DNA of 40,313 bases, from sequence record MT496969.1; one strand, given 5' to 3'. The notes beneath the pieces are model-generated. The model ran no database searches. It was not told the DNA's origin and was given only the letters and a program-made list of their open reading frames with translations. This stretch comes from Escherichia phage Mt1B1_P3. Below are positions 16,709-18,960 of the stretch, piece after piece (within the stretch, counting starts at the first letter, position 1; each line of letters begins with the position of its first letter). The position numbers and the translations under genes are program-made.

Positions 16709-16936
16709 TTAAATCATACTCATTAGGACGTATCCCTCAGCGATGTCACCAACGTCAGCAATGTGGACAACCTTACGTGCTACCTGTTGTCCAGTATACC
16801 CGTTGTCCCACTCATTCAGGATAAGCCAATCGCCAACCTTAAAGTCCCGGTCGTTAAGTCTCAGCTCTGCTGTCTTTAGACCTAGTTGTACCGGACCAAA
16901 GTGCTGGCGGTGAATCTTCAGGTTGTGACTAGCCAT
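16709..16936 (-). CDS. Small ASCH/PUA-like (DUF3850-like) protein inserted between tail tubular genes
   Basis: 75 aa MASHNLKIHRQHFGPVQLGLKTAELRLNDRDFKVGDWLILNEW...: HxLKIxxxxFxxVxxGxKTxExRxNDRDxxVGDxLxLxEW pattern typical of DUF3850. ATG overlaps gp11 stop (TAATG), GGAGGG RBS. No T7 counterpart at this position. Confidence 0.75.
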   Translation of the reverse strand: MASHNLKIHRQHFGPVQLGLKTAELRLNDRDFKVGDWLILNEWDNGYTGQQVARKVVHIADVGDIAEGYVLMSMI

Positions 16937-17502: not shown

Positions 17503-17618
17503 AGGTTTACTCCTTAACGGTCATAGGCGCTAGACGGTGAGCTGGACAGCAGGTACGCCCAGAATAAGACGAATAGTGCTAACCCTGTGTAAATAAGGAC
17601 CATAGTACCTCCTTAAGC

Positions 17619-17654
17619 AAAAAACCCCTCAAGCACCCGAAGGCACCCAAGGGG
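17619..17654 (-). terminator. Tphi-like terminator downstream of the capsid gene
   Basis: Minus RNA CCCCUUGGGUGCCUUCGGGUGCUUGAGGGG followed by UUUUUU; near-identical architecture to T7 Tphi (AACCCCTTGGGGCCTCTAAACGGGTCTTGAGGGGTTTTTTG). Confidence 0.8.
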
Positions 17655-17660
17655 TTTCAA

Positions 17661-18835
17661 TTAGTTGTTGGACTCAGCCAGTTTAGCGGCCCTGTTCGCA
17701 GCACGAGTACGCGCAGCTTTCTGTTGAGGAGTTAGAGTCTCCTCTTCAGGTGCAGCCGCTACTGTAGCGACGTTAGGTTGGCTAAAGGTGCTTACGCCGC
17801 TGGGCTGAAAACCAGTGCGCCAGCCGCTTCAGGACGCAGACCACCGTGACCCATAGCGTATTTACCAACAATCAGGTCGCCCTGAGCATCTACGTCACGG
17901 TCACGTTCCAGCGCCAAGTCACGCAGCTTCACAGTACCCACAGCAGAACGGTGAGAGAACAGACCAACAACGTTGTCCATAGCAACTTTAACGTCGCCAG
18001 TAGCAGTTGCCGGGAATGCGTGTTTCTGACCGGAAGCGATAGAGATGCCATCGTCACCACGAGTCTCACCAGCGCCACCCTGTACCAGATGCGGAACTTC
18101 AACAACAACGAAGCCCATCACGTTACGGATGTTACCAGTCTCTGGGTCAATCAGCGCAGCATAGTTAGCAGCGTTCGGCATCAGAGCCGCTAGGATTGCA
18201 GAGTAGTTGTCCGGCGTGGTGTAGAAGTAACGGTCGCCAGCAGGAACGTAGTTGGAGGTCAGCTTCGCACGAGCAATGGTCAGTTGACCAATGATTGCTT
18301 CACCCAGTTTAGCCGGGGTGTTGAGGTCAGCTTTCTTGCCAACTTCCAGTACTGACGCAGTGCCCAGACCCACGATGTTCTCGTTGGATGCAGCCGGTAG
18401 GTTACACAGGATCGCCATTTCAGCCAGCACCGCACCATCAGCAGCGATAGCCAGAGCTTCGCCCAACTGGTTGGAATACTCGCCAGCCACGTCGTAGTGG
18501 TTCATCGCGTCTTCAATGTCGAAAATCATCACATCGGCAGTCAGCAGACCATCAATGGTAATCACTTTCTCGGTATGTTTGATACCTTTACGCTTATCGG
18601 ACAGTCGCTCACCCGGAGCCAGATACACACCAGAGGTGCGACCCATGACCGGGAACTGAGCAGACTTACCGTTCTGAATGGTACGGACAATATGCTTGTC
18701 AGCAGTTACAGAGCGGCGAGTGAATGCGGTCAGGACTTCACCAGCAAATACCTTCAGGAACAACGCCAGAGCGTCTGAACTGGATTTGCCTTTACCTTGG
18801 TCTGTACCAATTTTCTGACCCGGAACGTTTGCCAT
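17661..18835 (-). CDS. 10B: Minor capsid protein 10B via -1 programmed frameshift near codon 343
   Basis: Slippery G GUU UUC (plus-strand 17807-17813) 4 codons before the 10A stop, as in T7; -1 frame stays open for about 47 codons (…QPSGVSTFSQPNVATVAAAPEEETLTPQQKAARTRAANRAAKLAESNN) and stops 7 nt before Tphi. Confidence 0.6.
17792..18835 (-). CDS. 10A: Major capsid protein 10A
   Basis: 347 aa, highly similar to T7 gp10A throughout (DKLALFLKVF-like N-terminus, ...AKYAMGHGGLRPEAAGA); GGAGA RBS as in T7. Confidence 0.97.
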   Translation of the reverse strand: MANVPGQKIGTDQGKGKSSSDALALFLKVFAGEVLTAFTRRSVTADKHIVRTIQNGKSAQFPVMGRTSGVYLAPGERLSDKRKGIKHTEKVITIDGLLTADVMIFDIEDAMNHYDVAGEYSNQLGEALAIAADGAVLAEMAILCNLPAASNENIVGLGTASVLEVGKKADLNTPAKLGEAIIGQLTIARAKLTSNYVPAGDRYFYTTPDNYSAILAALMPNAANYAALIDPETGNIRNVMGFVVVEVPHLVQGGAGETRGDDGISIASGQKHAFPATATGDVKVAMDNVVGLFSHRSAVGTVKLRDLALERDRDVDAQGDLIVGKYAMGHGGLRPEAAGALVFSPAA

Positions 18836-18937: not shown

Positions 18938-18960
18938 TCTCCCTATAGTGATAGTTTAGT
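18938..18960 (-). promoter_or_regulatory. Phage RNAP promoter phi10, TSS about 18943
   Basis: Minus strand ACTAAACTATCACTATAGGGAGA; initiating GGGAGA identical to T7 class III promoters; directly upstream of capsid gene. Confidence 0.7.

Follow-up and report, generated by a model that had tools for sequence, protein, structure and literature searches.

The capsid locus of Escherichia phage Mt1B1_P3 raises the question whether a single gene supports two capsid proteins, i.e., whether ribosomes translating the major capsid protein 10A may shift into the -1 frame shortly before the stop codon and produce a longer protein, 10B. A conserved programmed -1 frameshift had been proposed at this place in a first-pass annotation made from the sequence, and the proposal was followed up here in the window, that is the whole stretch of 40,313 nucleotides that was analysed (MT496969.1). 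The feature is already known, in the same genus and in a near-identical sequence: for K1F, the type species of Kayfunavirus, a -1 translational frameshift with the "addition of 44 triplets" was described (PMC6277420), and nothing reported below changes the understanding of frameshifting. The 10A/10B signal proposed for Mt1B1_P3 was confirmed as an observation, and its interpretation is supported, with a probability that we put at about 0.9, by the slip site, the frame devoid of a start, the homology of the tail and the terminator; expression of 10B in this genome would be expected from what is described for its relatives.

The capsid gene and its genomic setting

The genome is assigned to Kayfunavirus, as a K1F-like relative of T7. 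The minus strand carries all genes and promoters that were examined, which makes the window a reverse complement relative to the usual T7-type map; the first-pass annotation gave exact coordinates for the frameshift region, but left this strand unstated. For a query of 1,341 bases around gene 10, the identity is 100% with Kayfunavirus MT1B1P3 (OZ035815.1) and 99.8% with Escherichia phage vB_EcoA_ASO2B, and many other K1F-like phages follow at 95–97%. The equivalent of the phi10 promoter precedes the capsid gene by ~105 nt (Table 1). The K1F promoter consensus is matched 11 times in the window, this promoter included; each match is on the minus strand, and chance would give 0. The vB_EcoA_ASO2B record annotates a promoter at the position matching that of the phi10 equivalent.

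The zero-frame product of the gene matches the Pfam family Gp10A-like (PF21703) over residues 60–342 (E 1.5e-104), and in the PDB it matches 9vvq (E 2.4e-217) and the T7 10A structure 2xvr (E 2.9e-146). The major capsid protein encoded by the host gene is Gp10A-like, has the HK97 fold and belongs to a T7-like phage; its C-terminus reads ...GALVFSPAA, and the TAA stop codon of the gene occupies 17794..17792 on the minus strand.

Slip site, -1 frame and the predicted 10B protein

The slippery heptamer G GUU UUC had been placed four codons before the 10A stop, and it was found exactly there, in phase with the capsid frame: between GGTTTTC (17813..17807, minus strand) and the TAA of 10A there are four sense codons, AGC CCA GCG GCG. 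The -1 frame, for which about 47 codons had been given, comprises by our count 48 sense codons and ends with the TAA at 17663..17661 (minus strand), and its translation is QPSGVSTFSQPNVATVAAAPEEETLTPQQKAARTRAANRAAKLAESNN. The predicted 10B has 391 aa and 40.93 kDa vs. 347 aa and 36.29 kDa for 10A; with 44 residues and 4.64 kDa added, the earlier expectation of a capsid species roughly 5 kDa larger was a fair one. At the slip junction the predicted protein reads ...AAGALVFQPSGVSTF..., with VF-QPSG at the junction itself. Trypsin is predicted to release only two peptides informative for 10B, namely LAESNN at the C-terminus and, across the junction, YAMGHGGLRPEAAGALVFQPSGVSTFSQPNVATVAAAPEEETLTPQQK with 48 residues, while the junction peptide predicted for GluC is AAGALVFQPSGVSTFSQPNVATVAAAPE.

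The -1 frame was also searched for ATG, GTG and TTG starts that would give an ORF of at least 20 aa, and none was found; lacking a start codon, the -1 ORF is reachable only from 10A. The tail alone matches PHROG 12582, described as "head protein" (E 3.7e-10). A Pfam search with the tail of the window's 10B gave no match, Big_2 included, whereas the tails of T3 and of two collected loci (L030, L045) do match Big_2.

How much of this could arise by chance? Taken singly, neither element stands out, since GGTTTTC occurs in 2 copies in the window vs. 3.7 expected and an open run of 48 codons has P ~0.08 as estimated from the stop-triplet frequency. A slip-site scan of the gene strand covered its 52 stop-to-stop ORFs with 80 codons or more. 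These contain only 7 in-phase slippery heptamers, and the one at 17813..17807 is the only heptamer of the 7 whose -1 frame passes the zero-frame stop. Heptamer and open frame together, being conserved across genera, do exceed chance.

Table 1. Positions in the window of the 10A/10B locus and of the elements and ORFs around it.
Feature	Coordinates	Strand	Basis or remark
Phage RNA polymerase promoter, phi10 equivalent	18940..18958	minus	perfect match to the K1F promoter consensus TAAACTATCACTATAGGGA
Gene 10A, major capsid protein, zero frame, 347 aa	17792..18835	minus	ORF, Pfam and PDB matches
Slippery heptamer G GUU UUC (Val-Phe), -1 shift site	17807..17813	minus	phase verified; identical to the T7 site
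10B-specific -1 frame, 48 sense codons and TAA	17661..17807	minus	translation, PHROG, tail homology
10B	join(18835..17807, 17807..17661)	minus	predicted 391 aa
Tphi-homologous terminator for phage RNA polymerase	17619..17658	minus	hairpin 17658..17621, U-run to 17619
29-aa hydrophobic ORF	17514..17603	minus	between the terminator and gene 11
75-aa DUF3850/ASCH-domain ORF	16709..16936	minus	between tail genes 11 and 12

Conservation of the site and of the tail in relatives

The relatives compared were 78 IMG/VR loci encoding capsid homologues, together with reference records that included K1F, T7, T3, EcoDS1 and Berlinvirus. G GUU UUC is kept at the homologous Val-Phe codons in all kayfunaviruses of the collected set. 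Of the distinct sequences that code for Val-Phe here, 35 have GTT TTY, and 34 of these 35 relatives continue in a -1 ORF of at least 45 codons, while in relatives with the terminator directly after the 10A stop the valine codon is GTC, GTA or GTG, by which the slippery run is destroyed. The association of GUU with the extension has a Fisher p of ~1e-6 (not corrected for phylogeny). Nine apparent exceptions to this rule were noted and are otherwise explained: some of them have, two codons further on, an A AAG site of the T3 type, and in the others the -1 frame reads through the terminator and twice reaches gene 11.

The tail is homologous to that of T7 and Berlinvirus 10B over the block (E/T)LTPxQxAARTRAANxAxK. 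Substitutions in this block, counted by -1 codon position, are 5/4/14 vs. T7 and 3/4/11 vs. Berlinvirus, and the eight-codon AARTRAAN core keeps amino acids identical to those of T7 despite 6 synonymous changes; in the other two frames nearly all the changes would be nonsynonymous. The conservation of the tail is of the coding type, and its third-position-biased change is the signature of a translated frame.

Within the genus the coding signal is weak. In short-type kayfunaviruses the nucleotide diversity is 0.023 in the extension vs. 0.044 in the 10A body, and the fraction of variable third positions is 0.20 vs. 0.37, whereas variable first and second positions are more frequent in the extension; by codon position the variable sites number 5/6/10 in the tail and 25/7/127 in 10A. 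The amino-acid constraint on the tail within the genus is weak. The lower synonymous diversity, which is based on 21 variable sites in the tail, is compatible with an added constraint at the RNA level, and recent recombination would explain it equally well. One close relative, L012 (IMG/VR UViG_2974615076), has a 1-nt deletion at the 10A stop (TAAG to TAG) that puts the 10B tail in the +1 frame, and there a -1 shift would add only 15 residues; the deletion may be an error of sequencing, or the phage may be a natural variant without the 10B tail, in which case the tail would be dispensable.

Comparison with characterized systems

K1F has the same heptamer four codons before the stop and the same terminator. 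Its 48-codon tail differs from that of Mt1B1_P3 at one residue (RADKL in K1F, RAAKL here), and its capsid protein ends in ...SPAE instead of ...SPAA. In K1F the g10b::gfp phages, with GFP fused to the end of g10b, are stable and fluorescent (PMC6277420). The RefSeq record of EcoDS1 states that the product "may be translated via slippery sequence" and marks a "region of similarity to gp10B". In Kvp1, mass spectrometry has confirmed 10B, and the slippage there occurs at TTTTCA (PMC2579914).

The site had also been likened to that of T7, which holds for the heptamer: an identical G GUU UUC stands in the homologous Val-Phe codons, G_GU is listed as the X_XX of the T7 gene 10 slip site in a recoding review (PMC5009743), and the frameshifting in T7 reaches ~10% (PMC1635266). 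The tail core ETLTPxQxAARTRAAN is shared as well, and a homologous Tphi follows directly after the 10B stop. At the level of sequence, no feature of the 10A/10B system of T7 is missing here. The geometry, however, is not the same, since T7 has three codons from heptamer to stop and 56 codons in the -1 frame, in contrast to four and 48 here, and the distance from heptamer to terminator is ~177 nt in T7 vs. ~149 nt here. The tails of the two phages cannot be aligned in their N-terminal half, and Mt1B1_P3 lacks the GGGGG tract that T7 has 3′ of its site.

In T3 and phiYeO3-12, too, a minor capsid protein arises from a shift to the -1 frame at the 3′ end of the capsid gene, which is homologous to that of Mt1B1_P3, but the T3 site is C CCA AAG (lysine), and what the shift adds there is a Big_2 Ig-like domain of ~85 aa (Pfam E 4.5e-10; PMC2579914; PMC5009743). 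An A AAG site was sought near the 10A stop of the window and none was found, which sets the locus apart from the T3-type class. Eight T3-like loci among the relatives (L036, L044, L048, L051, L054, L055, L061, and L067) have Big_2 tails and are devoid of the poly-U heptamer; right ahead of their stop stands GCA AAG G, ACA AAG G or GAA AAG G, and these A AAG motifs imply single- or tandem-tRNA slippage like that at C CCA AAG of T3.

Kayfunaviruses of the LM33_P1 type, with a long tail, share the genus, the G GUU UUC and the terminator with Mt1B1_P3, and differ in that their -1 domain of ~94 codons is unrelated (phrog_7473, E 6.7e-37, no Pfam match). Tails of the phrog_7473 type occur behind the same GGTTTTC in L006, L015–L025, L076, and L077 (IMG/VR and LM33_P1 loci) and fall into two sequence subtypes (…SRRTNSLYFKA…). 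In L045 and L060 (IMG/VR 3300034349_000001 and 3300034127_000003) the -1 frame behind G GTT TTT is open for more than 400 codons and runs off the end of the locus; a Big_2 Ig-like domain comes first (E 5e-11) and is followed by ~300 residues without a Pfam match, in which a GDS-type motif is suggestive of an SGNH/GDSL hydrolase.

The terminator and the search for a stimulatory structure

The terminator behind the 10B stop had been called Tphi-like, which the alignment bears out: its hairpin can be aligned to Tphi of T7, Tphi of T3 and the "phiTE" terminator annotated in EcoDS1, and AACCCCTTGGG...TGAGGGGTTTTTTG is conserved. The minimum-free-energy of the hairpin is -25.2 kcal/mol (z -4.57), and a run of six U follows. 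The distance of 7 nt that had been given for it is approximate, since the hairpin begins 2 nt, and its CCCC core 6 nt, past the 10B stop. In T7 the CCCC tract of the terminator, which lies over 200 nt to the 3′ side of the slip site, has an unexplained long-range effect on frameshifting (PMC5009743).

Local folds, the consensus fold and tests of long-range pairing revealed no conserved stimulatory structure. The 202-nt region folds better than its shuffles (z -4.1), and this fold predicts an 8-bp stem 5 nt downstream of the heptamer; the stem is, however, absent both from the local minimum-free-energy fold, for which z is only -2.0, and from the consensus fold, and it is disrupted in K1F and L008. 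It was rejected as evidence of a local 3′ hairpin or pseudoknot stimulator because it is not conserved. A further hairpin, at alignment columns 43–59 and ~35 nt from the site, was rejected as well; its "compensatory" changes occur only between non-homologous segments of Kayfunavirus and Berlinvirus. Pairing of the 50 nt after the slip with the 5′ arm of the terminator gave -12.0 kcal/mol vs. a shuffle mean of -11.9, and the same comparison in T7 is also not significant.

Alternative explanations

It could be argued that the -1 ORF is an untranslated relic, and that the 131 nt from the 10A stop to the terminator are kept as RNA or DNA, e.g., for stability of the mRNA 3′ end, as terminator context or as a recombination tract. 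The halved diversity of the extension relative to the 10A body, with its fewer variable third and more variable first and second positions, would fit such a role, and so would the better-than-shuffled folding of the 202-nt region; the length of the open run, moreover, is by itself not exceptional. We nevertheless consider a relic very improbable, as the amino acids of the tail are conserved across genera with third-position-biased change, GUU co-varies with the presence of the extension, folded Ig-like domains occupy the equivalent -1 position in other relatives, and the fluorescence of the K1F g10b::gfp phage requires translation of the -1 frame (PMC6277420). Even less credible, to the point of being practically dismissed, is a separate small gene with its own initiation. 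Such a gene is what some Berlinvirus records in effect annotate as stand-alone CDSs, e.g., the 165-nt "major capsid protein 10B" of BSP161 and the "putative minor capsid protein" of ETEP21B, and PHROG 12582 is built from short "head protein" entries resembling these CDSs. Yet the -1 frame offers neither the start codon for which it was searched nor an evident ribosome-binding site, and the product is a fusion with 10A in T7 and, according to mass spectrometry, in Kvp1 (PMC2579914).

The shift could also take place in transcription, if the phage RNA polymerase, slipping on the run of four T, gave a fraction of the mRNAs one U more or less. A -1 fusion made in this way at a U-run would look identical at the protein level, and the computed features do not tell the two possibilities apart. 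Slippage of a polymerase normally needs homopolymer runs longer than four, which counts against it here, and the requirement for a heptamer that permits tandem re-pairing (G GUU UUC or G GUU UUU) fits slippage of two tRNAs instead. The review of the field treats T7 gene 10 as a case of ribosomal frameshifting (PMC5009743), and we give the transcriptional variant only a slight chance, about that of the relic.

Proposed mechanism

In the preferred reading, that of a ribosomal -1 frameshift, most ribosomes would translate G GUU UUC AGC CCA GCG GCG UAA to its end and release the 347-aa 10A. A minority, with tRNA-Val and tRNA-Phe on GUU UUC, would slip back by one nucleotide, so that the tRNAs re-pair on GGU UUU; decoding would resume at CAG in the -1 frame and proceed for 48 codons to give the 391-aa 10B. 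The protein would be a minor capsid protein co-assembled into the shell, and its 44 extra residues are expected on the outer surface. By analogy with T7 and K1F, the slippage would be ribosomal and ~10% efficient, 10B would be found in virions, and the Tphi-type terminator would contribute to stimulation.

Two related readings that go further are regarded as unlikely. The 131-nt tail region may double as a long-range RNA element that together with the Tphi hairpin sets the efficiency of frameshifting, and such a dual role in coding and in RNA would account for a reduced synonymous diversity despite weak amino-acid constraint. G GUU UUC may also be a fixed "socket" into which close relatives exchange unrelated surface modules; the modules present behind the capsid slip site in relatives are the short basic tail, the phrog_7473 domain, Big_2 domains and the extension of more than 400 codons.

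Neighbouring ORFs

Between the terminator and gene 11 there is a 29-aa hydrophobic ORF, MVLIYTGLALFVLFWAYLLSSSPSSAYDR, with an AAGGAGG ribosome-binding site upstream, for which searches of Pfam and PHROG gave no match. Diverged but similar forms occur in the kayfunaviruses L001, L002, L006, L012, and L015, and phage Pipis has the small ORF on record as a hypothetical protein with a single transmembrane segment. K1F and EcoDS1 lack it and have a gap of only 15–21 nt, while L026 has at the same spot a 444-nt insert, whose longest ORF codes for 143 aa rich in cysteine and histidine. Further along, tail genes 11 and 12 are separated by an inserted 75-aa ORF with a DUF3850/ASCH domain (Pfam E 1.9e-19). 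The ORF is also present in EcoDS1, under the annotation "RNA-binding protein"; it is missing in K1F, whose gene 12 begins at the end of gene 11.

Implications for annotation and capsid engineering

By blastn of the 131-nt extension, it is present at ≥95% identity in about 80 public records, and among the records listed nearly all are without annotation under the 10B-specific region; the 100%-identical OZ035815.1 has no annotation at all. Many kayfunavirus records name the 347-aa 10A "minor capsid protein", as does the PDB entry 9vvq, or "scaffold protein". The main value of the finding lies in annotation, the correct form being join(18835..17807, 17807..17661) on the minus strand. An enzyme appended to a capsid protein by frameshifting, as hinted by L045 and L060, would be unusual. 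In T7 and K1F the C-terminus of 10B is an established point of display, so Mt1B1_P3 could be engineered likewise.
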